A DNA stretch of 64,000 nt from a virus. Below, one piece after another: positions 5,344 to 63,495 of the stretch. A program made the translations under genes and the position numbers. The stretch lies in IMG/VR virus record IMGVR_UViG_3300020193_000004, positions 1-64,000 of that record, one strand, 5' to 3'. The notes beneath the pieces are model-generated. The model was not told the DNA's origin. It was given only the letters and a program-made list of their open reading frames with translations, and ran no database searches. Numbering within the stretch: position 1 is the stretch's first letter; the number at the start of each line of letters is the position of its first letter.

Positions 5344-5559
5344 TGTAAACCTCCGAAGAACCAGGGGATAAGGGTCATGCGTTGAAACTGCGGGTGCGCG
5401 AGTCCTGCAGGCCACCTCGCGCGGGAGTAGGCGCCCTGTCTGGGCGTAGTCGGTTGTCGACGAAAGCAGGCAGGAGTTCTTAGTCCTCTGGTTGTACTCA
5501 CATCCTGGAGAACGCGCAAGACATGGTCCGCCCCGGGCATAAGGAGCTTGGAGGTGAAC

Positions 5560-5754: not shown

Positions 5755-5756
5755 TC

Positions 5757-6035
5757 ATGGAGAAGCTCGTGACCACCGTGGTCGGCCCTGGGCCCGACCC
5801 GGTAGAGATCTACACCTACCAGGAGGGAGGGGTCGTGGTCGCACACGTCCCTTCCGGCCGGGAGAGGCCGCACCACCGGATCCTGGTCGGCCTGGGGGGC
5901 AGCGAACCTCGGGTAGACCACCGGGCGAGGAAGATGGCGGAGCTCGACTTCCCCAACGGCGACGTCACCATCTGGGTGGCGGCCACGGGGGAGCTGCTCT
6001 ACATCGAAGCCGAGGTCTACCCCCGAGAGGGGTAG
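5757..6035 (+). CDS. hypothetical protein
   Basis: GGAGGAG RBS; followed by CTCTTAG. Confidence 0.6.
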   Translation: MEKLVTTVVGPGPDPVEIYTYQEGGVVVAHVPSGRERPHHRILVGLGGSEPRVDHRARKMAELDFPNGDVTIWVAATGELLYIEAEVYPREG

Positions 6036-6040
6036 ACCTC

Positions 6041-8233
6041 TTAGCCCCTACGCGTCGACTGCGCCTGGTCGAGGAGCGTCTTGATCTGCTGTGCCGCCGC
6101 CTCCACGTGCTGCTTGTGGTTGGGGAAGGCCTGGGCGAGGTTCTTGGTACCTTCGTAAGCCGTGTGCTGGTCCCCCGGAAGCAGCATGGTCCGCAGGACC
6201 CCCGGCCGGTCCGTGTGAAGCCGATCGAAAACCAGCTGTCCGTGCCCCGGGATCTTCAGCTTCCACCGACCCGAGGGGAGGTCAGCTGTGTGCCCGCCCA
6301 GAGGGGCGAGAACACTCTGGATCTTGGTCGTAATGGCGTGTCCCTGCTGCAGCGTCACCCCGGGGATCCGATCCCTGATTCGCTCTGGCAGGTGCGGGAT
6401 GTTGATCTGCACCCGAGCATCCTTCTGCATCCCTGCGAGGACGGCCCCGTGCTTCGACATCTTCGCGTGCAGGTGGTGCATCTCCTGGATGGAGGGGCGC
6501 AGCAGGATTCCAAGCCCTACCAGCTCATTCAGGTCCGATAGGGCTCGCGGATGTGCTCCATGTCCACTACCGTGCATGGTATGAGACAGGGGCTCCAAGA
6601 CCGAGTGAGCTGCCCGCGCTGCGATGCCTACGCGACCAGGTCGACGAGACAGCACCTCGGCACCAGAGGCAGCGAGCGACGTTGCGTACGGGCTCATCAG
6701 CATCCCAAGTCCAGCGGCCTCGTGCATCGCCAGGCTCCGCATCTGCTTCTGCTCAGGGGTGAACTGGGTGCTCTTGGCGTTGCGATGCAGACCCACGGCC
6801 AGCGCCCCGAGACCTGCGGCGGTCCCTGCGGCGAAGAGTGTCTTCGGGTGTGCAGCGAGGCTGGACAGCACCGAGGCCGTCTTCTTGTACATCTTCGACT
6901 CCCTCCATGCGACGATGTGCTTGCAGTCCTGCTCGCCCTTGCCGGCGACGGACTTCTTGTAACGCCAGTCCGGGCACGTGCACCCGACCCCGCCGCCCCG
7001 CAGGCGCGTGATGCTGTACTCGCCGCCGTCGCCGACCCGGACCTTCTCGATCTCCTTGCCGGTGAGCAGGCGGTTCATCTGGTCGACGTGGCGCTCGAGC
7101 TTGGCGTCCGACCGGGTGTCCTGCTGGACCGCGGTGACGAAGGACTTCCGCTTCGCGTGGTCGAGGAAGTCGTCCCACTTCTTGGGGTCGTCGCTCCGGA
7201 AGTGCGTGTTGGCGCGGTGCTTCGCCTCCCGCTGCTCCTTGGAGATCGGGAGGGCTGCGGTCTTCTTCAGGGCGGCCGACTGCGCCCGTACGCCCGTGAA
7301 CGACGGGCCGAACTCTCCGAGTCCGGAGACGTTGCGTATGCGTTGCTGTACCTCAGCCTCACTGCCGCCCTGCGCCCAGTCGAAGACACGCAGGCGCCCA
7401 TCCGGCGTCCTCTGCGTGTTCTTCCCAAGGTCGCCGATGTGCAGACCCTTGCTCCGCGCCCAGTCGTGCAGGGGAGCGTGCGCCTTCTGCTCCTCTGCAT
7501 GGGCCCGATCATAGATCTCGGACACGACGTCCTCGTCGGCACGGCGGCGCGCTCGAACAGCACCAGCATCACCCCAGTTGTGGTCGTGCCAAGCCCTGAA
7601 CTTGCTGCGTACCTGCGCGGATTCCCGCGCTGCTGCTTCGCCGGCGTTCTCGCCGGGAATGTACTCCCACACCTGCGAGACCTGGCCGGGCGCAGCTTCG
7701 ATGTGATGGATCGGCCTCGGCAGAAGCCCTTCGGGAGCGTGCTTGGCCGTCTCGAAGCGCTCACGTGCGTGCTGGGCCTGTGCCTCCGTCGGATGGAACA
7801 TGTCCTTACGGACCTGCAGGCCTTCGGGGCCGAAGACCAGATGCGACACCTGCTCCCCGCCCTTACCGAGTACAGACTTCTCGCCTCGGTGCACGGCATG
7901 CCCGAGAGGCGTGTTCTTCAAGGCCCCGGCCGCGTGCAGACGCGCTGAGAGGGCGGCCACGGCCTCGGGCGCTGCCGCGCGCAACAGCTTCAGTCCCTTC
8001 GCAGTGGCGGTCTTGTCCGCCGGGTGGTCGAAGCGCTCTCGCCACTTCGCGATGATGGTGTTCCGCTCCTCTGCGGACATGGACCGCCAGGCACGCAGGA
8101 CCGCCCGACGCGCCTCGGAGGTGAGCGTACCGGCGACGGCTCCAGACCACTCACCCGGAGGTCCGAGGGAGGAGAGGATGCCAGGCACGTCCGTGCGTGT
8201 GTCCTGCGTTACTGTCGGCATGGCGAAGAGCAT
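6041..8233 (-). CDS. multi-module protein (kinase-like, SWIM zinc finger, membrane segments, RNase-like C-terminus); putative polyprotein
   Basis: LGKGGE...EYIPGE...GDLGKN...DGRLRVFD; CTCPDW-x11-CKH; three KTA and one KDA at module borders. Confidence 0.7.
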   Translation of the reverse strand: MLFAMPTVTQDTRTDVPGILSSLGPPGEWSGAVAGTLTSEARRAVLRAWRSMSAEERNTIIAKWRERFDHPADKTATAKGLKLLRAAAPEAVAALSARLHAAGALKNTPLGHAVHRGEKSVLGKGGEQVSHLVFGPEGLQVRKDMFHPTEAQAQHARERFETAKHAPEGLLPRPIHHIEAAPGQVSQVWEYIPGENAGEAAARESAQVRSKFRAWHDHNWGDAGAVRARRRADEDVVSEIYDRAHAEEQKAHAPLHDWARSKGLHIGDLGKNTQRTPDGRLRVFDWAQGGSEAEVQQRIRNVSGLGEFGPSFTGVRAQSAALKKTAALPISKEQREAKHRANTHFRSDDPKKWDDFLDHAKRKSFVTAVQQDTRSDAKLERHVDQMNRLLTGKEIEKVRVGDGGEYSITRLRGGGVGCTCPDWRYKKSVAGKGEQDCKHIVAWRESKMYKKTASVLSSLAAHPKTLFAAGTAAGLGALAVGLHRNAKSTQFTPEQKQMRSLAMHEAAGLGMLMSPYATSLAASGAEVLSRRPGRVGIAARAAHSVLEPLSHTMHGSGHGAHPRALSDLNELVGLGILLRPSIQEMHHLHAKMSKHGAVLAGMQKDARVQINIPHLPERIRDRIPGVTLQQGHAITTKIQSVLAPLGGHTADLPSGRWKLKIPGHGQLVFDRLHTDRPGVLRTMLLPGDQHTAYEGTKNLAQAFPNHKQHVEAAAQQIKTLLDQAQSTRRG

Positions 8234-48261: not shown

Positions 48262-48523
48262 GGTCTCACCGAAGGCCGAGCGGTACCTGGAGCGCACAGC
48301 CCGCATCCTGTCACGGGACGCGGGCCGACGCCTCAAGCCGGAGGATGTCCTCGAGCTCCTGGTGGAGCTGGCGATCGCGGACGAGGGACTCTACGACCCC
48401 GAGACCGGGGCGTCGCTCAGTAGTACACGGGCTCGGAGCCAGAGCGAGAGAGTCCGAGGCTCAGAACCTTCTGGGCGGTTCGCGCTCCAGCACCTAAGCC
48501 AACGCCTTCGGGACGAGGATTGA
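48251..48523 (+). CDS. small hypothetical protein
   Basis: Overlap coupling; 3' end overlaps the convergent gene. Confidence 0.45.
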   Translation: MRLEVSPKAERYLERTARILSRDAGRRLKPEDVLELLVELAIADEGLYDPETGASLSSTRARSQSERVRGSEPSGRFALQHLSQRLRDED

Positions 48524-51500
48524 CCGCCTGGTCGGCGGTTCTCTTTAGGGTGGCCAGCCCCAGGCCCACTGCTCCAGTACCGAGCGCCCCGTAGCGGACC
48601 TTCTCAGGGATAGCGTTCCAGTGTGTACCGAGCTCGCGCAGGATGTCTTCCGCACCTGCCGCTTTCACCACCCCTGTGGCTGCGGGCGCAGCACCTGCCT
48701 GCACCGGACGAGACAGCTTCGGGAACTCGATGGGCTTGGTCAGCGCTCTGGCGATGCGGTTTGCCGGACGCGTAGGGTCCACCGCATACTCAGAGTGCTC
48801 CGCGAGGCCCATGGGCACCTGCACGCCGTGTGCTTTCAACACCCCCACGGACTGCCGAACATCGTCCACGCTCGGCAGTCCGTGGATCCCGCGCTCACGT
48901 GCTGCAGCACCCAGTGCCTGCGCCTGTTCGTAGTGCCCGACGACATGGGGGTCGAACGCACTCAAGATCCCCTTGCTGACGGGGTGCAGGCCGCGTTCGC
49001 CCCTGGTTCCGGCAACCAGGCCCGCATGCGCTGCCCCCTCGTAGTACGGACGGAATACCTGCTTCAGGCCTGGGATTTTCGTCCCATATCGCCCGAGGAG
49101 GTGTGCCTTGGCGATGCCTGCGGTGGCAGCCAGCGCCTCTGGAGACGCGAAGGCATAGTGCAGTATGTCGTAGAGGTTCGCCTGTTTTATTGCAGCTGCG
49201 AGCGGTAGCTTGCCGGTGAAAAGGGGTTGTCCTTCTCTCCCCGGGACCGCCTCAAGTGCAGTACGGTTCCCATAAGTCTTCACGACACCAGGCACCTTAT
49301 CAATGGTGTAACCCTGTGTCTTTCCCAGTGAACCCCACACCCGCTGAGCGGCCTCCGACACTTGTTCACCGCTCTTTAGCTCCTGATTCGGCAAGCGCCG
49401 CATGACCTCCCCATACAGCTTCTTTCCCAGACCAAACCCCTGAAACTCGTCATTGATGTGGGTACCAACGATACGACCGTTCAACGTCTCCATATAGCCG
49501 ATCGGACGCCCATTCAGATGCATAGTATGGTCGACCAACCCCGGAAGATATTCGTGCGCTTTGGACACGACCTGCACTGATCGACGCAGGCGACTCCCCG
49601 CCAGCTTCTGCCAGTTGCCGCGGAAGGGGTTGATCGGGATGTGCTTGCCCTGATCCGGGTTCAGGCGAGGGGCGGCGAGCCGCGGCTGCTTCATGCCAGG
49701 CACGCGCGGCCGCTCCCCTTCGTCTCCCACTCCAGGGAGCTCCGCGGCGAGCTTCACACTCCCTTGCTTGGCCCAAGGACTCGAGGCCACCTGCAGGGTG
49801 GGCGCCGGCGGGCGCTGCGTCGGTATCGGGGTCTGCTGCTTGCTGGCGTACGCCTTCAGCGCGATTCCCCCTGTCAGCGCACCAGCCCCAAGGAGGATCT
49901 TGCCCTTGTTCCCGGCTACGAACCCGCCAACACGATTGAGCCCGCTCCGCAGAGCACTGCCAACTCCTCCATCGGCATGCGCCGCGGTGTTCCGTACAGC
50001 CAGAGCAGTATTGGCGGTAGCCGCTTCTGCAGCGGGCGGCGGAGGCGTCACGATCCGTGCGCGCCCCTGCGCGTCGAAGTGCGGGATCCGCGCGGCCAGA
50101 TCCTTCGACCGCTGTGCAGCTACGGGGTCCACGACGGGGCGAGGGGGACGCTCCACGCCCACCCACGGGACCGTGGGGGCCTTGCCCGGGTTCTGCAGGA
50201 CGTTGTGGATCTGATGCTCCGTACGGAAGGCCAGCCGTTTCACGGCAGCGCCTTGGCGCAGGGCCTCTTCAGGAGAGCTCGCCTTCAGTGCGTCGGCCGC
50301 TCCGCGCTGCAGACGGTCGTACCGAGCGGCGATGGCCCTCTGCTTTGCCTCCTCCGAGATGGCGACCTTCTCGAGGGACGACAGCACGGCCGAGCCGACA
50401 GGCACCTCTGCGAGGTTGGACTTCCCCGCGGTCTTCTGGAGGACCCCGAACGACCTCTCTGGTACAACACGTGCTGCATGTGCATGTGCCTGTCGTGCGA
50501 ACTCTTCGGAGGACTGCCCGAAACGTGCCTTCTGCGTGACCACCACTGGCGCTGCACGGCCAACCACGTCGAGCTCGTCAGGTATCACCTCAGCGTACAT
50601 GTGACGCCCCCGCTGCCTTACACGCACGCGAGGGAACCTCCGCGCCCCTTGTTCTGTCGAGCTGTACGCAGGAGAAGCACCCGCCGACACTGAGGCACTG
50701 CTGATAGCTTCCTCTACTTCGGGACCAGCGGCCTTTCGTCCATTCTTGAAGTAGATGCCTGGGCCTTCGTTGTCCAAGGCTTGCCCGAGCAAGAAGGTGT
50801 CCCCCGGCTCAGCCCACTTCGTCCTTGCGAGCGCCGCAGGGGTAACTGCCGCTCCGAGTACTCCACCGAGCAATCCTCCAGCAAGAGCGCCGCGAGTACG
50901 GTTTTTCTTGTCAAGAGCAGCACCGGCTCCAGCACCTGCAAGTCCAAACCCGAGCCCACCAGCAATGCGTGCGCGTAGGGGCGTAGCTACGAGTCCCTCG
51001 AGGGACGACAGTACATTGGCTGCAGTCTTGGAAGAGTTCTGCGAGAACCCGAGACGGTTGAGGGCGCTGGCCCTCTGCTTTGCCTCCTCCGAGATGGCGA
51101 CCTTCTCGAGGGACGACAGCACGCCGGAGGATTTCTGTGCTCGTCGCGCATGTCCCCACAGGCCCTTCGCCAAGGCCAGCCCGACCATCCCTCCAACGAT
51201 GCCCCGCTCTACCGGCGTCCAGCCAGCGATCTTCTTGCCGTGGTTCTGGCGGTCGTGGAAGATTCCGGCCGTCTTGGGCGGGGCCTGCGGTACTGCAGGA
51301 TGTACGGCGTCCCAGAGCTTCTTGACGCCATAGCCGCCCAGGTGGTGGGCGGCGTGGAAGATTCCGGCCGTCTTGGGCGGGGCCTGCGGTACTGCAGGAT
51401 GTACGGCGTCCCAGAGCTTCTTGACGCCATAGCCGCCCAGGGCCGCGGCTCCTGTCGCCAGTGCAGCCCCACCGGCGAACCTACCAGGACGCGCACGTGC

Positions 51501-52238
51501 GTACTCCGCGATCTCACGCAGACCGACACCTCGATAGTTCTTCGAGCCCTTGATGTACTCTGTCGGTATGGAGTCGACCGCGTGCTCGGCATATGACTGG
51601 AGACCGTGCTGTGCGCGCGCAGCGAGCTCGTTGTCCCTGATCAGCGCTGCCTGCTGGTGTGCATTGAAGTCGAGAAAATGGGCGCCCTTTAGACGGTCTA
51701 ACGTACGCTGCCTCCACGCGTGAAACCCGCCTGCCGTTTCTGGGTTCTCCTGTAGCGGAATCTTCCAGGTTGGTACGGACATCTTGACCGTAGCGGCTCC
51801 GCCTTCTCCAGGGCGGAGCTTAGCGGCCTGAGCGGCGTACATTGGCGCCTTCAGGTTCTTGGACGTCGTCACGTACGCCTTGTCTGCCCACTCCTTTGGG
51901 AAGTTGCCCTTGTTAATAACGCCGGCGGCGCCACCCCGGTTTGACGGCAAGAGCCCCTGTTCGCGGATCCGTGCCGCAGACTCCGCCGTAGTGCCGTGGT
52001 AGAGCGCCTGCCGTCCTGTGACCCGTGGAACCGACATCTTGGCGAGCACGCCACCACCTGCGAGCGCTCCAACTCCCGTAACGGCATCATCGGTCGTGGA
52101 GGGCTCTTGCCGGTCCGCACCCAGCTTCTGGAGCTCGTCCCCGAAGCTGGTCCAGTGGACGGTCTCTGCTGCGAGCTCGGTAATGCTCGCCTCCTTGGTC
52201 AACGGCCCCGCGAGGAGTCGATATAGACGCGCACCCAT
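48417..52238 (-). CDS. 1273-aa multi-module protein (ART-like, glycine zippers, GNAT); putative polyprotein
   Basis: LYHGT...GLLPS...YVTT; FQGFGLGKKLY; more than 10 K-x-A motifs at module borders; internal DNA repeats. Confidence 0.75.
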   Translation of the reverse strand: MGARLYRLLAGPLTKEASITELAAETVHWTSFGDELQKLGADRQEPSTTDDAVTGVGALAGGGVLAKMSVPRVTGRQALYHGTTAESAARIREQGLLPSNRGGAAGVINKGNFPKEWADKAYVTTSKNLKAPMYAAQAAKLRPGEGGAATVKMSVPTWKIPLQENPETAGGFHAWRQRTLDRLKGAHFLDFNAHQQAALIRDNELAARAQHGLQSYAEHAVDSIPTEYIKGSKNYRGVGLREIAEYARARPGRFAGGAALATGAAALGGYGVKKLWDAVHPAVPQAPPKTAGIFHAAHHLGGYGVKKLWDAVHPAVPQAPPKTAGIFHDRQNHGKKIAGWTPVERGIVGGMVGLALAKGLWGHARRAQKSSGVLSSLEKVAISEEAKQRASALNRLGFSQNSSKTAANVLSSLEGLVATPLRARIAGGLGFGLAGAGAGAALDKKNRTRGALAGGLLGGVLGAAVTPAALARTKWAEPGDTFLLGQALDNEGPGIYFKNGRKAAGPEVEEAISSASVSAGASPAYSSTEQGARRFPRVRVRQRGRHMYAEVIPDELDVVGRAAPVVVTQKARFGQSSEEFARQAHAHAARVVPERSFGVLQKTAGKSNLAEVPVGSAVLSSLEKVAISEEAKQRAIAARYDRLQRGAADALKASSPEEALRQGAAVKRLAFRTEHQIHNVLQNPGKAPTVPWVGVERPPRPVVDPVAAQRSKDLAARIPHFDAQGRARIVTPPPPAAEAATANTALAVRNTAAHADGGVGSALRSGLNRVGGFVAGNKGKILLGAGALTGGIALKAYASKQQTPIPTQRPPAPTLQVASSPWAKQGSVKLAAELPGVGDEGERPRVPGMKQPRLAAPRLNPDQGKHIPINPFRGNWQKLAGSRLRRSVQVVSKAHEYLPGLVDHTMHLNGRPIGYMETLNGRIVGTHINDEFQGFGLGKKLYGEVMRRLPNQELKSGEQVSEAAQRVWGSLGKTQGYTIDKVPGVVKTYGNRTALEAVPGREGQPLFTGKLPLAAAIKQANLYDILHYAFASPEALAATAGIAKAHLLGRYGTKIPGLKQVFRPYYEGAAHAGLVAGTRGERGLHPVSKGILSAFDPHVVGHYEQAQALGAAARERGIHGLPSVDDVRQSVGVLKAHGVQVPMGLAEHSEYAVDPTRPANRIARALTKPIEFPKLSRPVQAGAAPAATGVVKAAGAEDILRELGTHWNAIPEKVRYGALGTGAVGLGLATLKRTADQAVNPRPEGVGLGAGARTAQKVLSLGLSRSGSEPVYY
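50333..51123. repeat. 56-bp exact dispersed repeat (50333-50388 and 51068-51123)
   Basis: Encodes VLSSLEKVAISEEAKQRA twice. Confidence 0.9.
51254..51441. repeat. 89-bp exact near-tandem repeat, period 99
   Basis: 51254-51342 equals 51353-51441; encodes LGGYGVKKLWDAVHPAVPQAPPKTAGIFH. Confidence 0.92.
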
Positions 52239-52241
52239 CAG

Positions 52242-52652
52242 TCAGAGCTCCCAGACGTAGTTCGGGTCCTTCAGCTTAGCCTGTACCTCACTGACGGACA
52301 TGTCGCCGATGGCCTTGTCGAGGCCTGCGTCGGTCTTTGCAGAAGTGGCGTTCATCTTCTTGGCACGCTCGAGGACCTGCTGCATGCGTTCCTTGGGATC
52401 TGCAATCGCGGGCTTCACCGTGACCTTGATGTCGGGCGTAGGCAATGCAGCCGCGAGGCTTGAGGTTCCAGTCCTCGACCGCAGGGTGTGGCGCGCAAGG
52501 AGGCCGCCACCGGCCAGCAGGCCAACGGCACCCAGGCCTGTGGCGACTGGATGCCTCTTCCAGAACGGCCGATCGCCCTCGTGCTCCTCGTCCCCGACCT
52601 TCTCGAGAGCGAGGGCGTACACGTCGTAGACTTCTGCGGCTGTTTTGAACAT
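52242..52652 (-). CDS. small membrane protein with KTA/EKVG leader
   Basis: MFKTAAEVYDVYALALEKVG; one Gly-rich TM segment. Confidence 0.7.
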   Translation of the reverse strand: MFKTAAEVYDVYALALEKVGDEEHEGDRPFWKRHPVATGLGAVGLLAGGGLLARHTLRSRTGTSSLAAALPTPDIKVTVKPAIADPKERMQQVLERAKKMNATSAKTDAGLDKAIGDMSVSEVQAKLKDPNYVWEL

Positions 52653-52661
52653 GGAGAACTC

Positions 52662-55487
52662 CTACTTCACTGAGACGGCACGGGCATTCGAGCCCACAGC
52701 GAGCCGGTGGAGCTTCTTCTCCTCCTGCTGTACCTCGAGACCGCGCAGGAGGTGGATCATCTGCTCATCCGTGAGGCGGGCAGAGCGCCTCGCACGTGCC
52801 CCAGTCGTGGAGAACTTCGGGTCCTTGTAGCTCGACCACGCGTTCATGCCTCCCAGAACACCGCCACCCAGGAGACCAATCGCCGCGGCGCGTGGCAGGG
52901 CATCCTTCATCGGAAGGCCGCTCTTCAGGCTCTGGACGGCCGCGGTGACTACCTGCGTGTAGCCTGTGATGAGCGCACCGAGTGCTCCGACCGCCAACGT
53001 CTGCTTCAGGATCTCCCTCTTGCGCTCGTCATCGGTCTTGGCCTTCGACACCAGGCCGTCTCCGCTCCCGGGCTTCGCTGCCTCCCGGTAGTAGGCTCGC
53101 AATGCCTCGACGTACTCCTGCTCACGCTCCTGCAGCTCCTTGGGGAGCACCACCTTGGTGGGGTCCACCGCCTCCTCGAGGTGAGGGGCGAACTCCTTCA
53201 TGTAGGCCTCCATGATCGGCCTGTCGGACTTCACCAGGCGGTAAGGCTGCATGGGGAGGCGCTGCGCTGCAAGGCGGCGCTCCTTCGTCTTCTGGTCCGC
53301 TGCGGTCTTGATCGCCGCCGCCTCTGGGAGGGACCCGCGGTAGGACCACGGGCGCTCCTCCCTCAGCATCTGCGCCTTGATCTCTGGAGTGAGACCCTCC
53401 CAGGGCATCCGCTGTGAGGTCCTCAGCATCCCATTGTGCTCGTACTGGTGCGACCAAGGCGCCTGCTCCACCTTCCACCCGTGGCCGCCCTTCCCCAGGG
53501 AGTTCCAAAGACGAGTGGCCTCCGGAGAGACTTGTCCGTCGCTCTTCAGGGACGCGCCAGGCATACGACGCGCAACCTCCCCGTAGAACTTCCTTCCGAG
53601 CCCGAGGTTCCGGAACTCCTTCTCGATCTCGGTACCCATGATCTGCCCATCACGGGTCACCATCCGCCCAGCGGGCTTCCCACCGACCAGGAGCGTCCAG
53701 TGTGTCCGATCTGGATGCACCGAGCTTACTTCAGAGACCACCCGAGTCATTGCACGTAGACGACTCCCTGCCATCTTGGTGGCGCCACCCCCGGCGCGAG
53801 CCGCGAGGCCGTCCTCGAGGAGGTCCAGCATGTCCTCGACGGTGTCGCAGGGAGCCTCGGCGGTCTTGTCGAGGTTGCCGCGCAGCTGCTTGTTGCGCTC
53901 GTCCTTGTTCCACGCCACCTCGTAGGCCCACTCGTCCGGCGAGCGCTCACGCTTCAGCGGGTTGTAGAAGACGGGCTGGCCCTCGAGGACGCGACTGAGC
54001 ATGCCGGACGGCGCGATCAGGTTCATCGTGTCCTTCGCGACCTGCGTCTTCGAGAGAGGGACGCGCGTGACGTAGCGACGGATGAGGACGTGCCGCTGGT
54101 CCTCGGGACGGTGCGCCTGCCCGCCGGCGCGCACGCCGCGGGCCTCGGCCTGGTGGATCTTCTCGGGGTTGAAGTGCCCGTCGACGTTGGCGACGAAGGT
54201 GGTGTTGCCCAGGTTCAGTCCCTCGCCGCCAGCGGAGGAGAGGAGGATGACCTTCTTCGTCCCCGCCTGGTAGTCGGCGACCGCCTGTGAGCGGCTCTGC
54301 TCGGTGGAGCCCGCCTGCCCCTTGCCCATGAAGATGCCGTGCGCGATGCCGCGGTCCTTCAGGCCTTGGCTGAGGACGTCGACCCCACCCTGGATCATGT
54401 TCGAGTAGATGATGACCTGCCCGTCCGGCGTCTCCTTCAGGTGCGTCTCCACGTCGTCCAGCACCCGCTTGATCTTGGGGGAGCGCTGCGCGGACTCCGC
54501 GAGCGTCACCGACTTGTTGACGGTGTGGATGGCGTTCGAGACCTGGCGCGCCTGGGTCATCTTGTTGAAGATGTTGTTGATATCGTTAGTCTTGAGCTTC
54601 GACGAGCCGAAGCGGAACTTCAGTGCCGTCACCGGGTCCATCTTCCCGACGACGTACTGGTAGAGCTCCTGCTGCTCGGGGGTCATGTCGACCTTGACCG
54701 TCTCCACGGTCTTCTTCGGCATCGCGCCGCCACCGGTCGAGGCGTCGACGTGGTGGATGTAGGGGTTCAGCAGCAGGCGCACGACGGGGGTGTTCTGGAG
54801 CTTCCCGTCCTCGGTCATGAACCGCCGCTCGAAGTTCTCCTTCGTACCGAGGTGGTGCTGCCCGTCCGTCATCGCGTCGACGAGCGGGACCAGGTCCGCC
54901 GGCGTGTTGCTCACGATCGAGCCCGTCAGCCCGATGAAGTTGCGGTGATGCTTCCGCGCCTCGCGGAGCGCCTTACCGGTGATCCCGATGTTCTTGATCT
55001 TGTGGAGCTCGTCGTAGATGACGGTGTCCGCCCCCGAGGACTTGATGTACTTCTCGGGGTTGGTGCGGAAGAGGTCGTAGCTGACGACGTGGTAGCGCGC
55101 AGACGGGTCCGGGTCGTCTACATGACGGCCCGTGCCGTTGGCGACCTCCTCGGCGTTGCCGAACACCGCGGCCTTGTCCTTCGTGAACTTGTGCACGCCC
55201 TCGTTGGTGAAGTTCTTCCGCAGGGAGGCCGGGGTCACGATGAGCGCGCGGTCGGCCATCCCGTTCTGGCGGAGACGATCGAACGCCGCGATCGCGGTGA
55301 CGGTCTTCCCGGAACCGACGGGGTGGCTCAGGATGAGGTTGCCGTTCTGCCGCACGGCCTTCTGGACGGCGTCCTCCTGGTGCGGACGGAGCTCAACGCC
55401 AGCCTGCAGGGCCGAGCCCACAGCGGCCGCGAGCTTCTGCCCCAGGTTGACGAAGATGTGGAAGCCCTGCCGCTCTCGCATGGACAT
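52662..55487 (-). CDS. SNF2-like SF2 helicase fused to a GNAT module and membrane tail
   Basis: GSGKT, DELH, LTGS, GGEGLNL, QAEARGVR; FRNLGLGRKFY. Confidence 0.85.
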   Translation of the reverse strand: MSMRERQGFHIFVNLGQKLAAAVGSALQAGVELRPHQEDAVQKAVRQNGNLILSHPVGSGKTVTAIAAFDRLRQNGMADRALIVTPASLRKNFTNEGVHKFTKDKAAVFGNAEEVANGTGRHVDDPDPSARYHVVSYDLFRTNPEKYIKSSGADTVIYDELHKIKNIGITGKALREARKHHRNFIGLTGSIVSNTPADLVPLVDAMTDGQHHLGTKENFERRFMTEDGKLQNTPVVRLLLNPYIHHVDASTGGGAMPKKTVETVKVDMTPEQQELYQYVVGKMDPVTALKFRFGSSKLKTNDINNIFNKMTQARQVSNAIHTVNKSVTLAESAQRSPKIKRVLDDVETHLKETPDGQVIIYSNMIQGGVDVLSQGLKDRGIAHGIFMGKGQAGSTEQSRSQAVADYQAGTKKVILLSSAGGEGLNLGNTTFVANVDGHFNPEKIHQAEARGVRAGGQAHRPEDQRHVLIRRYVTRVPLSKTQVAKDTMNLIAPSGMLSRVLEGQPVFYNPLKRERSPDEWAYEVAWNKDERNKQLRGNLDKTAEAPCDTVEDMLDLLEDGLAARAGGGATKMAGSRLRAMTRVVSEVSSVHPDRTHWTLLVGGKPAGRMVTRDGQIMGTEIEKEFRNLGLGRKFYGEVARRMPGASLKSDGQVSPEATRLWNSLGKGGHGWKVEQAPWSHQYEHNGMLRTSQRMPWEGLTPEIKAQMLREERPWSYRGSLPEAAAIKTAADQKTKERRLAAQRLPMQPYRLVKSDRPIMEAYMKEFAPHLEEAVDPTKVVLPKELQEREQEYVEALRAYYREAAKPGSGDGLVSKAKTDDERKREILKQTLAVGALGALITGYTQVVTAAVQSLKSGLPMKDALPRAAAIGLLGGGVLGGMNAWSSYKDPKFSTTGARARRSARLTDEQMIHLLRGLEVQQEEKKLHRLAVGSNARAVSVK

Positions 55488-55499
55488 CCGGTGCTTCCC

Positions 55500-56201
55500 C
55501 TACAGACCGCTGATCAGGCCAACGACCCTGGTGGCGATCGGGAGCATCCGCTCGTACTGGATCCCGACACCTTCCTGCAGGACCGTGCCCATGGCGTCGG
55601 TCGAGAGGGAGTGGTTGGGGACGTAGCAGGCCTCGAAGTAGTAGGCGCACATCGTGTCCTCGTTACTGTCCTTCAGCATGAGGAGGATGCCAATCGGCTG
55701 CTTGAAGAGGTCGCTGGCCAGATTGAGGTAGATGTTCTCGTAGCCGGGAGGGATGACGACGTCGTGCGGGTTGGCCACCGTCGAGGCCCCGATGTTCGGG
55801 AACACGGCGGGGACGACCGTGGGCGGGACCAGGTCCTGGTAGTAGGCGTAGAGCGTCCGGAGCAGCGAGGGCCCGTGGTACATGATACGGGACAGCGAGA
55901 GGCTGCCCATCACGCGGCCAGGGATGAAGTAGCTGCGCTCGGACCCGATCTCGAAGAACCGGGCCAGCTGCATGTTGTTGCCGAGCTGGAAGCTCTGGAC
56001 CACGCCCACCGGGTAGGCGATCTGGTCGCTACTGCTGCTGCCCGCCGAGAGCGCGGCCGCGAGGAACGAAGGGCCGCCGATGTTCGCCAGACGTGGGGGA
56101 CCGGCCGCGATCAGGGTGAAGGCCGCGTTCAGAAAGCGACCGTCGACCATGCCCCCCTGTACGTACTGATCGTACGGGCTCCATTCGGAAAGCGTTGCCA
56201 T
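55500..56201 (-). CDS. probable tail tube protein
   Basis: Downstream of sheath; VGVVQSFQ...FEIGS...SLSLSRI...EGVGIQYE beta pattern. Confidence 0.7.
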   Translation of the reverse strand: MATLSEWSPYDQYVQGGMVDGRFLNAAFTLIAAGPPRLANIGGPSFLAAALSAGSSSSDQIAYPVGVVQSFQLGNNMQLARFFEIGSERSYFIPGRVMGSLSLSRIMYHGPSLLRTLYAYYQDLVPPTVVPAVFPNIGASTVANPHDVVIPPGYENIYLNLASDLFKQPIGILLMLKDSNEDTMCAYYFEACYVPNHSLSTDAMGTVLQEGVGIQYERMLPIATRVVGLISGL

Positions 56202-57747: not shown

Positions 57748-60700
57748 TCAAGAGACGATGGTGATCTTGATCTTGTTGCAGGGGTAGACCGGCTCGACCG
57801 AGACATCAATGAGGACGGTGTCGGGCGCGTCGGTATCCTGCAGCAGCTTCGTGAGCTCGGCCTTGCGGACCACGCCGAGCAGCTCCGCGTAGTCCAGGAA
57901 GCCCTCGTTGCAGAGGGTCAGCTGGTCGAGGAAGCCGCTAGTGATGACGGACCGCCCGATGAACACGCGGTTCGTCGCCCGCAGGCCCTTCGCGAGCCAG
58001 TCGATCGCCTTCGTGATCGACAGCTCCTTGGTCTGGATGCTGGTCGGGTCGGTCGACAGCTGCTTCCGCGCGACCGGCACACCGCCCAGGTTGACCATCA
58101 CGTAGCGGCCGGCGTCGGCGATGGTGTCGAGCTGCTTCCCATTGTAGGTGTCGTCGGTCCCATACACCCGGGTGAAGCCCGCGACCGGGAAGTTCGTGAA
58201 CGGCTGCTGCGGGGGCTGCTCCGCCACCATACCGGCGATGGCCGCCGCCAGGTAGAAGCCCTCCACGTTCTGGGTCACGCCGTCGATGCTCGTGTCGACC
58301 GAGTCGCACGCCAGGTAGTAAACCCGGCGGTGCGCGAAAGCCGCGGCCTGCGACGCCGCGGCAGACGCCTCGGCGGCCAGGTCGGGGATCGTGGTCCCGG
58401 TCACGTAGAGCCTGTCGCCGCGGATCTTGAGCGTCCAGTCCGCGGCGGACAGCTCCTCGTCAAGGGTCTCGGTCGTGAAGAACCCGTCCGTGTTCTCGCC
58501 GTCCGCGAAGGTCACGCGCAGCGCGATGACCACGCCGTTGACCTCCTGCACGGAGTAGCGGCGGAGCTCCGAGACGCCCAGGGTCGTTACGACCAGCTCG
58601 AGGTAGAGGTTGTCGTCGACCGAGATCTCGTCCGAGGGGTCGATGCCGTTCTCGATGAGGTCCGACGCCGGGTTCACGTCGAGCGTGAACGAGTTCTCGG
58701 TCCCGTTGCTCTCCCCGTTCTCGCCGCTGGCCACGGTGACGGTGACCGCACGGTCCGGCAGCGCCGCCCAGATGAAGAGAATGCGCTCGCCGCGCTCCTC
58801 GGGGGCGCTCATCGCCTGGACGTGCGTGGACAGCAGCCCCTGCACGTACTCGTCGGCGGTGAGCGGCGCGATGGCGTAGACCTCCTTGCTCTCGATGTAC
58901 TCGATCGCGCGGCTCCATCCGTCCAGTGTCCCGTAGGGCGCGGCCGCACTCTCCTCGTCGATGCCGAGGGCGCTGATGGTTTGCGTCGGGCTGTTGGCGA
59001 GGGCCAGGAAGACGCCCAGGCACAGCGGGTTGTTGATGCTGATCGGTCCGATGGACGCCTCGAGGATCTCGGTACTCTCGAATGTCAGGAGCGCCGGGTC
59101 CTCCGCCGAGGCCGTCACGTCCTTCCGCAGCGCCGTGTACGGGATGTACACGTCGGCGAGGGCCGAGGCGAGCGAGAATGGGATGCCAGAGCTCCGGTTG
59201 CGCAGGATGTTGGGGCCGATGTGTACCGCACCGTCCCCGTCCAGGTAGAAGTCGGGGTCCGGGCGCCCTGCTCCCTCGTCGGTGCCGGTGATGCCGAAGA
59301 CCGTGTCCGCGGTAGAGGTGGAGTCGATCGCCACCTTCGACGCGGCGCCTGCGAGCAGGCTGGTCAGGACCAGCTTGCGGGTGTCCTCGGAAGCCACGTC
59401 TTCCGCACCATCGACGAGCTCGTTGATATCGTCGATGGCGGCCTGCAGCGAGTTCGTCGCGAACGTGATCTCGTAGTCGTACGGGTTGTCATCGAGGTTG
59501 AAGATCAGGATGGTGCTCTTGAGAGCGTCGGCGCCGCCGTCGTCCGCGTTGGTCCCGTTGGCTGCGCCCGCGTCGTTGTACGCCGCGGGGTCGACGTCGA
59601 AGCCCATCGCTGTGAAGCCGGCCTGCAGTGCGGCCGCCTCCAGCTCCATCACGACCCCACCGTCGATGGTGCGCACGGACACGACGTCGTTGTCGGCGCT
59701 GAACCACTCTACGAGACGCTTCGCTGCGGCGGTGATGCCGTTGAAGTTCGCCGCCGCGTTGAGCAGCTCGGTGAGCTCCTCAGCATCTGCCGAGCCGGCC
59801 ATCGCGTAGGTAGCCGTGCCTGTAATGGTGGTAGTGGTGCCGCCACCGTCGTCCGACCAGGTGAAGACGATGTCTGCGGGGGTGATACCACTGGGAGTAC
59901 CACCGAGCCACGTGGCCACGGCCTGCGCGTCGGACGCGCCGGAATCAAAGAGAACGTCGCGCAAGTTGGTACCGCCAGTACGGTCCGCGATCGTGATCGA
60001 CGCCGCGCCCGTGACCGTGATCTCGAACTGCTCGTCATCGAAATCGAAGATCACGGAGACAAGGCCCGACGCGGCACCGGCGCCGACCATCGCGGCCTCG
60101 AGCTGCGTCTCGAGGTCGGCGGCGAGCTCGTTCAGCGTCAGGCCCGTCCCGGTCGATAGCGAGATCACCACGGCGGCGGGGTTGCCGCCGGCGACGCCGG
60201 TCGTGGAGAAGTCGAAGCCGGAAGTGGCTCCCACGGTGAGGATGCCACCGAGGCCGCTGAAGTCCGTGACGCCGCCGACAGAGTCGAGCTGCGCGGGAGC
60301 GTCGCCAGTATCGTCGTGGAACCCGAGGAATCGGAACCCGTCGGTCTCGTCCACAGCGGTGATGGCGAGCGTCACGCTCGCGCCACCCTCGATCGTGGTG
60401 ATGGTGATCGTGCCGGTCGTGTCCGCCCCGCCGGAGTTCGTCATCGTCGCGATGGGGATGCCGCCGTCGTAGATGGTCGGGTCGAGGGTTCCATCGGTGG
60501 AGCCGAAGGCCTCGCAGAGCTTATCGGTCAGTGCCGCGAGCGTCCCCGCGTCCGTCGCCAGCGACACCGCCGCCGTGGTGACGGTGTGGGTGCCCTTCGA
60601 GTCCTCGATGGTGAGCTCGTAGACCTTCGTGGTCAGGTCGACCATGGGCAGGGCGAAGAAGTCGCTCGTGAGCGCTGCCTGGGTCGCGAACTCGACGTCC

Positions 60701-62274
60701 TTGCCGGTGTCGGTGGTCGCGGCGGTGGTCGAGAACAGGAGCGCGGTGTTGGCCGTGCCCGTGGACTTCACGGTAACAGACTGGTCTGCGCCGGCCTTCG
60801 TGGTCGTGAGCACGAGACGGTTGTCGACGGAGATGCTGATCGTGAGCTGGCCGAACTCGTCTGCGGCGGCCAGCAGATCCTTGAGCTCCGTGCGCGTGTA
60901 CGGGCCGCCGGCGAAGGTGTAGGTGACCTCCTCGCCCTCGACGCCGTCCTCAGTCACCTGGAAGATCAGCGTGAGGCTGGCCAGGCTCAGCGAGGCGGCG
61001 ATGGCGCCGGTGCTCTGCACGTAGGCCGAGCGGGACGCGAGCCCCTGGTTGGAACCGGTGAGCGTGGCGGCCTCGCCCTCGGGGGTGATCGAGCCGTACT
61101 CGAGCGCCTGCGCCCGGAAGTACGCGTACTTCGGCGCGAATGGGGTGCCGTGGTTCTCGGTGTTCACCTCGATGGTGTCGTAGACGCGGTTCGTGGGGTT
61201 CCCGTCGTCGTCGAACGTCGAGAGGCTGCTGTTGAGCTTGCCGATCTTGAACCGGCTGGCCTCGATCTTGGTGATCTCCCCGCTGCCGACCTGTGAGCCG
61301 TCGGCCCACATCTGGTCTCCGGGCTTCGCCGCCGTTGCTGCTGCGAGCGGCACCGTGGCGGACGTCCCGGTGTAGGTGACCGCGGCCGCCTTCGAGGTGT
61401 TGAAGGTCTCGTCGAGGTCGACCTGGCCTGCCCAGAGGAGGTTGGCGGTGGGAGCCGCGTCGAAGGAGAGCTGCTCGCTGTCGTCCTCGAAGTAGCCGCC
61501 ACGGTAGAACTCGAGCCACGGCGTGGTGAGGTCGCTGTCCTCGTCGTCCTGTCCGCGGAAGCCCGCGCCCTCGACGCGGTACTCCTTGGAGGCGTCGAAC
61601 GAGGCGCCGAAGAGGATGGTGAGGGCCGAGGTCCCGGCTCGGATGGTGATACTCGAGGTTGCGCCGAAGGTCGGCGAGGTGAGCTGCACCTTGTCCGAGC
61701 CGCTGACGTCGACCACCGTGGCGACCTCGGAACCGACGGCCTCGTTGATTGCCTCCGCGACCTCCTCTGCCGTCAGGGTCCCGACGAAGGTCACGGTGAT
61801 GTCGGAGGAGACGTTCACGGGGTTCACGACGTCGAAGGCGAACGTGAACGCGTCCCCCACGGTGGCGTCGAAGGCGAACGAGTCGCCGACAGAGGTGCGC
61901 AGCGCCGCGGCGCGGCACTTGTTCATCAGCTTGAGGAACGCCGAGCCGTACGAGTCGTTGCTGCCGCGGTCGAGCGTGCGGACACTCCCGCCGAAGTACA
62001 GCGAGACCCCGACGGTCTCCTCGTCGATGTTGAGCTCGTCGATGTTCTCGCGGGGGTCCGGGAAGTCCGCCTGCGGGATGAACATCGACGCTTGGTTGTA
62101 GCGTGCGTCGGGGTACTTCGCATCGCTGTTCAGCCCGCCGTCGCTGTCGAGGACCTCGATGATCTGACGACAGACGCCCATGACGAGAGGGACGAGGGCG
62201 GGAGACGAGGGCGTGGAAGAACTCGACGCGATTTCCTGCGTGATCTCGACACCGGGGCGGTTGCTGGATGCCAT
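57748..62274 (-). CDS. contractile tail sheath protein with large insertion domains
   Basis: N-terminal RPGVEI; C-terminal ELSITKAIDW...FIGR...VEPVYPCNKIKITI. Confidence 0.88.
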   Translation of the reverse strand: MASSNRPGVEITQEIASSSSTPSSPALVPLVMGVCRQIIEVLDSDGGLNSDAKYPDARYNQASMFIPQADFPDPRENIDELNIDEETVGVSLYFGGSVRTLDRGSNDSYGSAFLKLMNKCRAAALRTSVGDSFAFDATVGDAFTFAFDVVNPVNVSSDITVTFVGTLTAEEVAEAINEAVGSEVATVVDVSGSDKVQLTSPTFGATSSITIRAGTSALTILFGASFDASKEYRVEGAGFRGQDDEDSDLTTPWLEFYRGGYFEDDSEQLSFDAAPTANLLWAGQVDLDETFNTSKAAAVTYTGTSATVPLAAATAAKPGDQMWADGSQVGSGEITKIEASRFKIGKLNSSLSTFDDDGNPTNRVYDTIEVNTENHGTPFAPKYAYFRAQALEYGSITPEGEAATLTGSNQGLASRSAYVQSTGAIAASLSLASLTLIFQVTEDGVEGEEVTYTFAGGPYTRTELKDLLAAADEFGQLTISISVDNRLVLTTTKAGADQSVTVKSTGTANTALLFSTTAATTDTGKDVEFATQAALTSDFFALPMVDLTTKVYELTIEDSKGTHTVTTAAVSLATDAGTLAALTDKLCEAFGSTDGTLDPTIYDGGIPIATMTNSGGADTTGTITITTIEGGASVTLAITAVDETDGFRFLGFHDDTGDAPAQLDSVGGVTDFSGLGGILTVGATSGFDFSTTGVAGGNPAAVVISLSTGTGLTLNELAADLETQLEAAMVGAGAASGLVSVIFDFDDEQFEITVTGAASITIADRTGGTNLRDVLFDSGASDAQAVATWLGGTPSGITPADIVFTWSDDGGGTTTTITGTATYAMAGSADAEELTELLNAAANFNGITAAAKRLVEWFSADNDVVSVRTIDGGVVMELEAAALQAGFTAMGFDVDPAAYNDAGAANGTNADDGGADALKSTILIFNLDDNPYDYEITFATNSLQAAIDDINELVDGAEDVASEDTRKLVLTSLLAGAASKVAIDSTSTADTVFGITGTDEGAGRPDPDFYLDGDGAVHIGPNILRNRSSGIPFSLASALADVYIPYTALRKDVTASAEDPALLTFESTEILEASIGPISINNPLCLGVFLALANSPTQTISALGIDEESAAAPYGTLDGWSRAIEYIESKEVYAIAPLTADEYVQGLLSTHVQAMSAPEERGERILFIWAALPDRAVTVTVASGENGESNGTENSFTLDVNPASDLIENGIDPSDEISVDDNLYLELVVTTLGVSELRRYSVQEVNGVVIALRVTFADGENTDGFFTTETLDEELSAADWTLKIRGDRLYVTGTTIPDLAAEASAAASQAAAFAHRRVYYLACDSVDTSIDGVTQNVEGFYLAAAIAGMVAEQPPQQPFTNFPVAGFTRVYGTDDTYNGKQLDTIADAGRYVMVNLGGVPVARKQLSTDPTSIQTKELSITKAIDWLAKGLRATNRVFIGRSVITSGFLDQLTLCNEGFLDYAELLGVVRKAELTKLLQDTDAPDTVLIDVSVEPVYPCNKIKITIVS

Positions 62275-62276: not shown

Positions 62277-63071
62277 TCAGGCCTCGTCAGAGCTGTTGGA
62301 GGTGAAAACCGTCTCGAGGAGGACTTCAGCCTCTCGGAGGGTCTCGGGAGGTGAGCCGATCCGACGTACCACGACGGGCGCCGAAGACATCGCCAACTGT
62401 ACCTTCTCCAGCACGCTGGGGGAAGAGTAGAGGTAGTCCGAGGCGCGTCGTTCCTGGTTGATCATGTCGATCGACCGAGCACTTGCGGGAGCAGTGGGCT
62501 CTTCTGCCCATGTCCACTGGAACGAGAACGGGAGGTTGACCTGCACCATGAAGAGCCCGGTCGGGTCGCCGTGGATCAGTGCCCCCGGTGGGCTCGGGGA
62601 GTTCTGCGAGGCCGCCGGGCGCGCTATCTGATGGAACCCACCAGAGCCTTCGAGGAGGCGGCGGTTGGCGTACGTCCCGTGCACGACCAGGTGTGCCAGC
62701 CACTGCGCGACGACGTCGTTCTCGGCCAGGCAGTACACCACGAAGTGGCCGGAGATCAGGTCCGCGTGGACCCGCCGCCCGGTGGTGAGGTTCATGTACA
62801 TCAGCTGGTCGATACCGAGCCCCTGGTACTGGACAGGGCCCATGACGACGGTCACCGCAGGCTTCTTGCCCACCGTCTTCATGTCGAGCGGGGCCTCGGC
62901 GCGGATGATCACTTCCGTCCGCTCGGCATCCGGCTCCCAGTGGAACTTCCCCTCTGCGTTGAAGTTGAAGAGTCCCTGCAGGAACCGGACGAAGAGCTTC
63001 TGCGCATAGAGCAACGGGTTGTCCCCGCGCTCCAACGAGACGCGTCGCGAGCGGGTGGCAACCTCACTCAC
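62277..63071 (-). CDS. probable tail completion/terminator protein
   Basis: Immediately upstream of sheath; KKPAVTV; GGAG RBS. Confidence 0.55.
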   Translation of the reverse strand: MSEVATRSRRVSLERGDNPLLYAQKLFVRFLQGLFNFNAEGKFHWEPDAERTEVIIRAEAPLDMKTVGKKPAVTVVMGPVQYQGLGIDQLMYMNLTTGRRVHADLISGHFVVYCLAENDVVAQWLAHLVVHGTYANRRLLEGSGGFHQIARPAASQNSPSPPGALIHGDPTGLFMVQVNLPFSFQWTWAEEPTAPASARSIDMINQERRASDYLYSSPSVLEKVQLAMSSAPVVVRRIGSPPETLREAEVLLETVFTSNSSDEA

Positions 63072-63495
63072 GGGACAGCTCCAGGAGGGCTTGGTGGTAC
63101 ACGTCGTAGATGGAGGCGACCTTCTCAGACCCAGCAGCCTTGCGCTCCTTCTCCAGTCGAGAGACCTCCTCTGCGATACGGACTTGACCGGCCATGTGCG
63201 CGAGTCCAGCGCTGACGGTGGCCACGGAGCCGAGAGCCCCCACGGCCTGTGTGATGGCCCGACGCTGAACGTCCGGGTGGAGCCGCGCGAAGCGCGCACC
63301 GAACCGGGAACGGGCGAGGGCGTCGGCGACCGGTACCCCTGCGTAGTACCCGAGCGCGTGTGCAGCCGCGATTCCGCCCATGTTCGCCAGGACGAACCCC
63401 CAGGGGTACGACGATGGGGGCGTACGCGCAGCCTGCTCCTGGTACTCCTGGTACCCGGGCTGCTTCTTCATCTCGGCGACAGGGTCACGCATCAT
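63064..63495 (-). CDS. small membrane protein with C-terminal EKVASIYDVY motif
   Basis: Two hydrophobic segments; overlap coupling. Confidence 0.6.
   Translation of the reverse strand: MMRDPVAEMKKQPGYQEYQEQAARTPPSSYPWGFVLANMGGIAAAHALGYYAGVPVADALARSRFGARFARLHPDVQRRAITQAVGALGSVATVSAGLAHMAGQVRIAEEVSRLEKERKAAGSEKVASIYDVYHQALLELSRE

Follow-up and report, generated by a model that had tools for sequence, protein, structure and literature searches.

Lys-x-Ala motifs at the joints of multi-module proteins in an uncultivated phage: candidate head-loaded cargo of a putative prohead protease

In phage T4, the head protease gp21 acts on gp23, the scaffold gp22, IPI-III and the ADP-ribosyltransferase Alt with its capsid targeting sequence. 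Processing by a head protease is proposed here for five proteins (P0001 to P0005) encoded in the window, i.e., the whole stretch of 64,000 nucleotides (bases 1-64000) analyzed from the IMG/VR virus record IMGVR_UViG_3300020193_000004 (115,144 bp, GC 66%, CheckV completeness 66%). The source is an uncultivated phage of ~175 kb with a contractile tail and its own multisubunit RNA polymerase, and is a distant relative of Salmonella phage Arash and Bacillus phage G. In a preliminary description, three adjacent genes downstream of the tail tube and two further genes had been read as head-packaged polyproteins, cut at Lys-x-Ala (K-x-A) into injected enzymes; all five genes and their motifs were located where it had placed them. 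The best explanation, to which a probability of about 0.6 is given, is that these are head-loaded polyvalent cargo proteins which would be cut in trans by a prohead protease with Lys-x-Ala↓(Ser/Ala/Gly) specificity. The Lys-x-Ala site, its use at every multi-enzyme joint and the comparative evidence of cassettes moving there are new; no description of a Lys-x-Ala head-protease motif was found in literature searches. The genes are as follows (aa, amino acids; slashes in sequences mark the proposed sites; G001 and G002 are two near-complete relatives):

48417-52238, minus strand: P0001, 1273 aa, about 11-15 segments divided by K-x-[A/G] sites (from the translation, the site table and the mosaic comparison with G001 and G002)
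52242-52652, minus strand: P0002, 136 aa, MFKTA/AEVYDVYALALEKVG/ leader, then a hydrophobic segment
52662-55487, minus strand: P0003, 941 aa, leader followed by an SNF2 helicase and a GNAT-like cassette, the C-terminal module having a hydrophobic segment
6041-8233, minus strand: P0004, 730 aa, multi-module protein
63064-63495, minus strand: P0005, 143 aa, hydrophobic protein
72691-74601 of the genome, outside the window: head-maturation protease candidate, 636 aa, the protease being the N-terminal domain

Described processing systems and the K-x-A proteins

With the T4 gp21 system, the phage has in common a candidate head protease of possibly assemblin-like fold, a short site common to capsid, scaffold, protease and cargo, short N-terminal cargo leaders which, as proposed here, would be removed at the site, and an ART-fold (ADP-ribosyltransferase) enzyme among the cargo (Alt in T4). 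The T4 enzyme cleaves behind Glu, at (L/I)-x-E; the conserved site here is K-x-A with a small residue next to it. Each T4 cargo protein is separate and has one site, at its N-terminal end, while the chains here comprise up to about a dozen modules, every joint bearing a site. The candidate protease has no detectable sequence relation to gp21 and matches it weakly in fold (Z 5.2). Herpesvirus assemblin, with the consensus (V/L/I)-x-A↓S, is similar in Ala at P1 and the preference for Ser at P1', but P3 is an invariant Lys here and not hydrophobic; no sequence relation was detectable to this enzyme either, and the fold matches had Z 2.6-3.7.

The proteases gp175 of phiKZ and gp245 of SPN3US process many inner-body or ejection proteins at (S/A/G)-x-E (PMC10052503, PMC5694885). 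These, too, are giant phages with their own multisubunit RNA polymerase (virion-packaged in Arash and phiKZ-like phages), in which the site is present in many head proteins, and several times in some substrates (SPN3US gp53). In contrast, nearly all cuts in SPN3US free N-terminal propeptides and not enzyme modules, and the capsid protein is small here (387 aa) and unrelated in sequence to those of these phages.

Polyvalent proteins were described by Iyer, Burroughs, Anand, de Souza and Aravind in 2017 as mosaic multi-effector proteins which are predicted to travel with the DNA (PMC5512222). At least two unrelated effector-type domains per polypeptide are likewise combined here (SNF2 with GNAT-like, ART fold with GNAT-like, kinase-like with SWIM), mosaicism is extensive, and hallmark domains are present (SNF2 in P0003, InPase PF18823 in the G001 and G002 orthologues of P0001). 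For polyvalent proteins, processing by an embedded MPTase was proposed, and a defined joint motif and leader are not part of that paper (PMC5512222). In P0001-P0005, no peptidase family including MPTase was found (Pfam E-values up to 0.1, and up to 10 for nine segments); the joints carry the motif of the phage's own head protease, therefore cutting in trans is implied.

Motif enrichment and the protease candidate

Motif counts were compared with the expectation from shuffled sequences, with the four large named proteins as one set. Counting K-x-A per residue had been suggested in the preliminary description, and plain K-x-A turned out not to be enriched (29 observed vs. 24.6 expected, z 1.0). 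A sharpened motif was: K-x-A-[SAG] occurred 17 times vs. 7.2 expected (z 4.0), a count reached by 1 of 300 shuffles, and K-T-A 10 times vs. 1.3 expected (z 7.1). In the head cluster, the region around the major capsid gene (genome 67008-76829, outside the window), K-x-A-[SAG] was found 24 times vs. 4.7 expected (z 9.2) and K-x-A-S 15 times vs. 1.0 expected. This ~5-fold enrichment lies in the capsid N-terminus, the scaffold-like protein and both protease flanks. For the named proteins and the head cluster, the reversed motif and the R-x-A and E-x-A variants were at background; E-x-A-[SAG], the sole Glu-containing variant tested, showed no enrichment. The remaining 108 predicted proteins were at background for K-x-A-[SAG] (31 vs. 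24.5). The sites have L/F at P5, E/T/D/Q at P4, K at P3, T/L/E/V/I at P2 and A at P1, followed at P1' by S (4.6-fold), G or A. On sequence grounds, K-x-A-[SAG] is a real signal which is specific to head proteins and brackets swappable modules.

With the capsid protein as the query, 35 related IMG/VR loci (GC 47-68%) were retrieved, and 13 non-redundant ones were used for enrichment. In their head-cluster homologues the motif was enriched 4-6-fold (z 3-12), and no enrichment was seen for tail homologues or for the reversed motif. Within the same proteins, the Lys columns of the motif were better conserved than other Lys columns (0.59 vs. 0.35, p 2e-4), as were its Ala columns compared with other Ala columns (0.65 vs. 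0.33, p 3e-8). Since the middle residue and the codons vary while the motif is kept over 30-68% GC in unrelated proteins, selection acts on it at the protein level; for the same reasons, a recombination signal at the DNA level was judged unlikely. An artefact of chance or of composition in a proteome rich in Ala and high in GC would suit the count of plain K-x-A in the named proteins, but it is effectively refuted by the enrichment of K-x-A-[SAG] and K-T-A with flat controls, the reappearance of the motif in low-GC relatives and the conserved columns.

The same motif was to be sought in capsid and scaffold propeptides according to the preliminary description, and it was present in the capsid protein and in the scaffold-like protein. 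In the likely major capsid protein (387 aa), K-T-A-A stands at residues 27-30, and 24 of the 25 aligned homologues have K-x-A there. The scaffold-like protein (127 aa, coiled-coil) has four conserved K-x-A sites. A Pfam scan of ten head-region proteins gave no protease, capsid or scaffold family, and in a PHROGs scan of ten structural genes almost nothing matched. The nearest isolates according to the capsid protein are Salmonella phage Arash and three Vibrio phages (22-26% identity). The Arash capsid protein contains VKEA/G near residue 29, and proteins encoded beside the Arash capsid and protease genes are rich in K-x-A (gp220, 10 vs. 3.0 expected; gp223, 8 vs. 3.0; gp225, 7 vs. 1.8). The gp19 protease homologue of phage G contains 8 K-x-A vs. 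2.5 expected, distributed to either side of its catalytic domain, and KQA/A and KMA/S are present at the N-terminus of the portal protein.

The head protease, which the preliminary description expected elsewhere in the genome, has its candidate in the gene at 72691-74601. Invariant motifs of the N-terminal domain are G-x-x-E-x-x-G-x-N-x-x-G-D, H137-H138-x-N-K and S194-M-G, the last two supplying invariant His and Ser. The gene was tied by tblastn to a Gordonia phage 'capsid maturation protease' gene, phage G gp19 and Arash Gp222; gp19 was called head maturation protease in a multi-omics paper of 2025, without cleavage sites (PMC12484599). The AlphaFold2 (AF2) model of the protease is moderate (predicted local distance difference test, pLDDT, 61.5; core 70-87). 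T4 gp21 (5jbl) was the first-ranked fold match by Foldseek (E 0.068, prob 0.66) and was also ranked first by VIA (Z 5.2, root-mean-square deviation 3.8, 126 of 165 residues), followed by herpesvirus proteases (Z 2.6-3.7); the protease profile had no match in a PDB sequence search. Amid otherwise variable sequence, K-x-A is conserved before the protease domain (…LDKVA/SGEHLP) and near the C-terminus (…DKTA/D…), the pattern to be expected for self-processing. The sites taken together suggest that the enzyme would most likely cut after Ala in (L/F)-(E/T/D/Q)-K-x-A↓(S/A/G). In two relatives, inteins with an endonuclease-like insert lie directly after Ser-Met-Gly (L008 ~3250-5800, L040 ~4850-6960), and the query phage has none. 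Intein insertion is common at active sites.

Modules and cassettes at the joints

P0001 was compared with its homologues in G001 (183 kb, capsid 94% identical) and G002 (188 kb, capsid 88% identical). Its features are:

52119-52238, minus strand: leader, residues 1-40, ending FGDELQKLG/; a leader type also found in the G001 and G002 homologues and in stand-alone ART and GNAT genes
51366-52118, minus strand: ART-fold module, residues 41-291, ending PPKTA/ (AF2, Foldseek, PDB profile)
51237-51434, minus strand: 99-nt tandem duplication, 93% identity, coding for a 33-aa unit ending PPKTA/GIFH
50328-50394 and 51063-51129, minus strand: 67-nt dispersed repeat, 96% identity, coding for VLSSLEKVA/ISEEAKQRA
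49599-49745, minus strand: ELPGVG cassette, residues 832-880, ELPGVGDEGERP...NPFRGNWQKLA/ (comparison with G001)
49179-49598, minus strand: GNAT-like cassette copy 1, residues 881-1020, from KLA/GSRLR to AAAIKQA/
48657-49178, minus strand: module of unknown family, residues 1021-1194, ending VVKAA/, absent from the G001 and G002 homologues
48420-48656, minus strand: conserved C-terminal module, residues 1195-1273, with a Gly/Ala-rich hydrophobic stretch (G001 match)

The three homologues have a common leader (…HW-x-x-F-x-D-E-[L/I]-x-K-x-[A/G]/) and a common C-terminal module, the G001 match to the latter starting with the Lys of the K-A-A site (residue 1192). The slot of the ART-fold module is occupied by InPase in G001 and G002 (PF18823, E 4.5e-40 in the G001 orthologue), and the extra module of P0001 relative to both comprises 174 aa. 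The GNAT-like cassette is placed upstream of the ELPGVG cassette in G001, downstream of it in P0001, and does not occur in G002. Throughout this family every junction is K-x-A/G. The near-exact 99-nt and 67-nt repeats both span sites and, at the level of the DNA sequence, show recent duplication of linker-containing DNA. In the AF2 model of the ART-fold protein, the leader including both its sites has low confidence (pLDDT 48-66), and the folded domain begins after K-L-G. Third-position GC was 0.70 in P0001 vs. 0.89-0.92 in its neighbours, a value consistent with recently acquired or fast-evolving cassettes.

P0003 and P0004 add the following features:

53301-53768, minus strand: GNAT-like cassette copy 2, P0003 residues 574-729, absent from the G001 and G002 orthologues
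6041-8233, minus strand: P0004 layout, with a leader to DKTA/, kinase-like module (residues 77-326), SWIM module (327-453), hydrophobic module (454-606) and basic C-terminal module (607-730)
7256-8005, minus strand: kinase-like module, in this genome only, its slot being filled by other modules in G001 and G002
6875-7255, minus strand: SWIM-type module between KKTA/ and KKTA/

The two GNAT-like copies are paralogues (46% identity, E 8e-25). Identity between P0003 and its G001 and G002 orthologues is 80-81% for residues 6-570 and 54-57% for the part from residue 724/730 to 939; in place of the cassette, the orthologues have a single VKEA/ joint (…AEDPALPLVKEA/AAKK…). P0003 reads …GGGATKMA/GSRLR…(GNAT-like)…AAAIKTA/ADQK…, with the cassette between K-M-A/ and K-T-A/. 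One joint in the relatives corresponds to two flanking the cassette here; therefore, a joint became joint-cassette-joint. Members of the P0004 family have in common the leader to DKTA/, the SWIM module and the hydrophobic module, while the slot-1 and C-terminal modules differ between relatives; in a further relative, G004, the SWIM module is found in an unrelated protein between K-E-A/ and K-T-A/. The P0004 orthologue of G002 (G002:134755-136146) ends at a TGA just after KKHA/SLLAGM, and the search match reads through this codon, which could be a truncation at the joint or a read-through. P0005, which is conserved in relatives, ends in a C-terminal tail, EKVA/SIYDVYHQALL, and its K-x-A is retained in all four matches extending to the C-terminus. 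The leader of P0002 has a paralogue in the gene at genome 104498-105337.

As a rough test, the distances of BLAST alignment ends (n = 33, mutually non-independent) from the nearest site were compared with those of random positions in 2000 trials. The median was 10 aa for the alignment ends vs. 35 for random positions, and 8 of the 33 ends were at most 3 aa from a site (random mean 2.3, maximum 8 in the 2000 trials). The proposal that K-x-A marks module borders was borne out by these ends and by the cassette comparisons, and did not hold for several sites which lie inside folded domains. The further proposal that the linkers admit new modules agrees with the cassettes gained, lost and swapped at joints between close relatives.

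Modules also occur as separate genes. An ART-fold profile search gave 544 proteins at E ≤ 0.001; most are of ~260 aa and stand-alone, and part of the family forms a domain of larger proteins (1000-1700 aa), at differing positions. Among 84 stand-alone representatives, 67 have K-x-[AG] in the first 25 residues (shuffle mean 36, maximum 50); these leader sites end at residues 6-21, mostly 6-11, with the consensus Y-L-E-K-I-A. Cleavage behind Glu as in T4, at leaders of the type 'K-I-A-E', was rejected, since only 13 of 67 leaders have Glu at that position. In low-GC and distant relatives, the gene immediately preceding the protease gene encodes a stand-alone ART-fold protein, and the capsid and RNA polymerase genes are close by. 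Stand-alone GNAT-like homologues, P0156 and P0157 among them, start with a leader (…FFDEMEKIA/ or …HMPKQA/) followed by GSRLR…, and the genes stop about where the downstream joint of the cassette would fall. As the ends of stand-alone genes and cassettes correspond, a two-site module is equivalent to a whole mature protein elsewhere. The homologous-protein search gave no stand-alone homologue of the kinase-like module.

The domain labels of the preliminary description fared differently. The SNF2 helicase of P0003 is firmly identified by sequence (Pfam SNF2-rel_dom, E 4e-18; Helicase_C, E 2.5e-11; phrog_62, E 1e-56). The predicted ART fold of P0001 residues 41-291 is firm as well: the AF2 model has a pLDDT of 86, and nearly all top-ranked Foldseek rows belong to the ART superfamily, with Tpt1/KptA first (prob 1.00, E 0.02-0.1) and further matches to DarT, pertussis-like S1 and the A subunits of pertussis and cholera toxin. 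Tpt1 was also matched by the profile in PDB (E 0.003). Among 44 homologues, H81 is invariant and E167 nearly so, both being candidates for the catalytic H-Y-E (or R-S-E) residues of the superfamily, and a TGR...YHGT motif is present; ART-PolyVal is a weak Atlas lead (score 0.79). The GNAT label of the cassettes is weak, with three Pfam GNAT families at E 0.02-0.17, all below the cut-off, and a motif F(Q/R)xxGLGKKLY, comparable to the acetyl-CoA motif Q/R-x-x-G-x-G/A, conserved in 5 homologues. The SWIM label is likewise weak (Pfam E 0.006, CxC…CxH signature present). For the kinase-like module, the similarity to minimal protein kinases (Atlas score 0.94; structural TM 0.53-0.58 over residues 89-326) is a lead, the structural match ending at the K-T-A site. 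A Pfam search of nine module segments with E up to 10 gave nothing for the ART-fold, kinase-like and C-terminal modules. Gly/Ala-rich hydrophobic segments, as described before, are present in four of the five proteins (P0001-P0004).

Cargo processing, rival explanations and neighbouring genes

In the proposed system, the cleavage site would be found not only in the protease but also in the capsid and scaffold-like proteins and in a group of cargo proteins. Cargo would be of two types, namely single modules behind a short N-terminal leader Φ-x-D/E-E-L-x-K-x-A, and, as in this window, unrelated modules chained with a site at the joints. The chains would be produced late, alongside the tail genes, and taken into the prohead by the leader; cleavage in trans would then free the SNF2 helicase, the ART-fold enzyme and the GNAT-like, kinase-like, SWIM and Gly/Ala-rich hydrophobic pieces, which would leave the virion together with the DNA and affect the host at an early stage of infection. 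As every joint is the same short site, cassettes could be added, deleted or reordered by recombination without harm to their neighbours. Because the joints carry the same tag as the capsid, scaffold-like and protease proteins, the chains are probably head-loaded and cut.

Support for packaging is indirect. It consists of the motif common with prohead proteins, the leaders common with head-cluster genes, the place of stand-alone ART-fold genes next to the protease gene in distant relatives, and Arash Gp217, an SNF2 helicase to which P0003 is 30% identical (E 1e-44). In mass spectrometry of Arash virions, Gp217 was represented by 1148 spectra, compared with 1333 for the capsid protein and 1210 for RNA polymerase β', and the protease homologue Gp222 is listed among the virion proteins (PMC10585845).

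Several points weigh against head loading and cleavage. The Arash virion preparation lists 116 proteins with odd coverage figures, so that it is weak evidence of packaging, and Gp217 itself has no leader and a reported coverage of 100% (PMC10585845). The genes of P0001-P0003 adjoin the tail genes and not the head cluster, and the phage G capsid protein has zero K-x-A. The 26 residues before the capsid site are well conserved too, which is less usual for a discarded propeptide; for this reason, the conservation of the capsid site is not independent evidence. The fold matches of the protease are weak in absolute terms (Z 5.2, E 0.068, for a model with a pLDDT of only 61.5), and the position of the scissile bond after Ala was deduced only from the preference for Ser at P1' and the analogy with herpesvirus assemblin. 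K-x-A alone cannot suffice for cutting, because some of these motifs sit inside folded domains (P0001 K184, P0003 K105 and K604, P0004 K164). For this phage, we infer cleavage, the exact scissile bond, virion packaging, injection and host targets from sequence; the head-specific motif, the protease candidate and the gain, loss and exchange of modules at joints are the parts of the earlier polyprotein reading that could be substantiated.

It is unlikely that K-x-A is instead a conserved docking or linker motif for the scaffold, the portal or the capsid interior, with polyvalent proteins delivered intact. The N4 virion RNA polymerase, ArdC and TraC1 are indeed packaged or transferred unprocessed (PMC5512222), and the conserved sequence before the capsid site would agree with docking, but sites on both protease flanks and four in a scaffold-like protein of 127 aa form the classic pattern of self-processing and scaffold removal. 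In addition, stand-alone genes end about at the cassette end, and the strong preference for Ser, Gly or Ala right after Ala better suits a scissile bond. Still less probable is that the products of the three genes following the tube gene belong to the tail, as lumen or tape-measure-like ejection proteins, and are processed, if at all, outside the prohead. They do follow sheath and tube genes, where myophages usually encode chaperones and the tape measure, and they contain Gly/Ala-rich hydrophobic segments; moreover, tape measures can hold enzyme domains and can be processed. However, the tail proteins of the phage and its relatives are without the motif, P0004 and P0005 have the same joints and leaders at other places in the genome, relatives encode the ART-fold module within the head cluster, and SNF2, ART-fold and kinase-like modules are globular enzymes, unlike tape measures.

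A similarly low probability is assigned to late cytoplasmic proteins which are not packaged, being cut by free protease or left uncut, so that the motif would reflect linker ancestry spread by recombination. The near-exact DNA repeats of 99 and 67 nt across sites would suit such a spread; the variable middle residue and codons and the retention of the motif at 30-68% GC in unrelated proteins speak against it, and prohead proteases, e.g., T4 gp21, are normally active only inside proheads. Head-loaded cargo cut in trans therefore remains the preferred reading. A broader form of it, for which the odds are put slightly below even, is a clade-wide 'load-and-cut' code in big Arash-like and phage-G-like phages (GC 30-68%), in which a leader would load the cargo and a protease of assemblin fold would free swappable modules, a combinatorial toolkit for early infection; virion cargo could then be read from the sequence in hundreds of uncultivated phages.

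If head-loaded cargo is indeed cut in this way, a third head-protease rule would stand beside cleavage after Glu (T4, phiKZ) and the HK97 type, resembling the herpesvirus Ala↓Ser cut. Virion cargo would become predictable from sequence alone in a large and mostly uncultivated phage clade, and polyvalent proteins would have a way of being divided into functional units even without a built-in peptidase. The free shuffling of cassettes would be explained. The leader-plus-site tag could be used for loading foreign proteins into capsids, like the T4 capsid targeting sequence. Given that CBASS enzymes are reported to sense phage prohead proteases via cleavable loops (PMC12991175), the specificity of the protease is also relevant to host defence.

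P0003, P0002 and P0001 are co-oriented on the minus strand, and upstream of P0003, on the same strand, three genes encode proteins of 1508, 509 and 233 aa. The first and the last of these are:

57748-62274, minus strand: giant tail sheath (1508 aa), identified by the similarity of its C-terminal domain to phage G gp178, which is annotated 'tail sheath' (E 1e-7)
55500-56201, minus strand: tail-tube-like gene, 233 aa, assigned from its position after the sheath and from synteny with Arash

The earlier placement of the three genes downstream of the tail tube is thus supported by the sheath match upstream, the tube gene itself being named by position and Arash synteny only. K-x-A was not enriched in the sheath (3 vs. 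4.3 expected), the tube-like protein contains zero K-x-A, and neither gene had a match in PDB sequence searches. In the sheath, numerous Thr/Ala/Gly-rich repeated insertion domains precede the conventional C-terminal sheath domain.

Outside the window, two genes of ~1070 aa (genome 97213-103643) resemble the β and β' subunits of multisubunit RNA polymerases and contain a GRHGNKG motif; low-GC relatives encode their homologues beside the head cluster, and in Arash these subunits abound in the virion. A protein of 1022 aa (genome 89298-92366) with a ferritin-like domain (Pfam E 3e-5, just below the cut-off) bears leader-type K-x-A, namely TKVA/S near the N-terminus and SKMA/S at residue 704, and may be another cargo chain. 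A second peptide type, K-x-A/x-[V/I]-Y-[D/E]-x-Y-x-x-A-L, is common to four otherwise unrelated small proteins (genome 104498-105337 and 96857-97216; window 52242-52652 and 63064-63495). Three of them have it at the N-terminus and the fourth at the C-terminus, and it may be a targeting or docking peptide.

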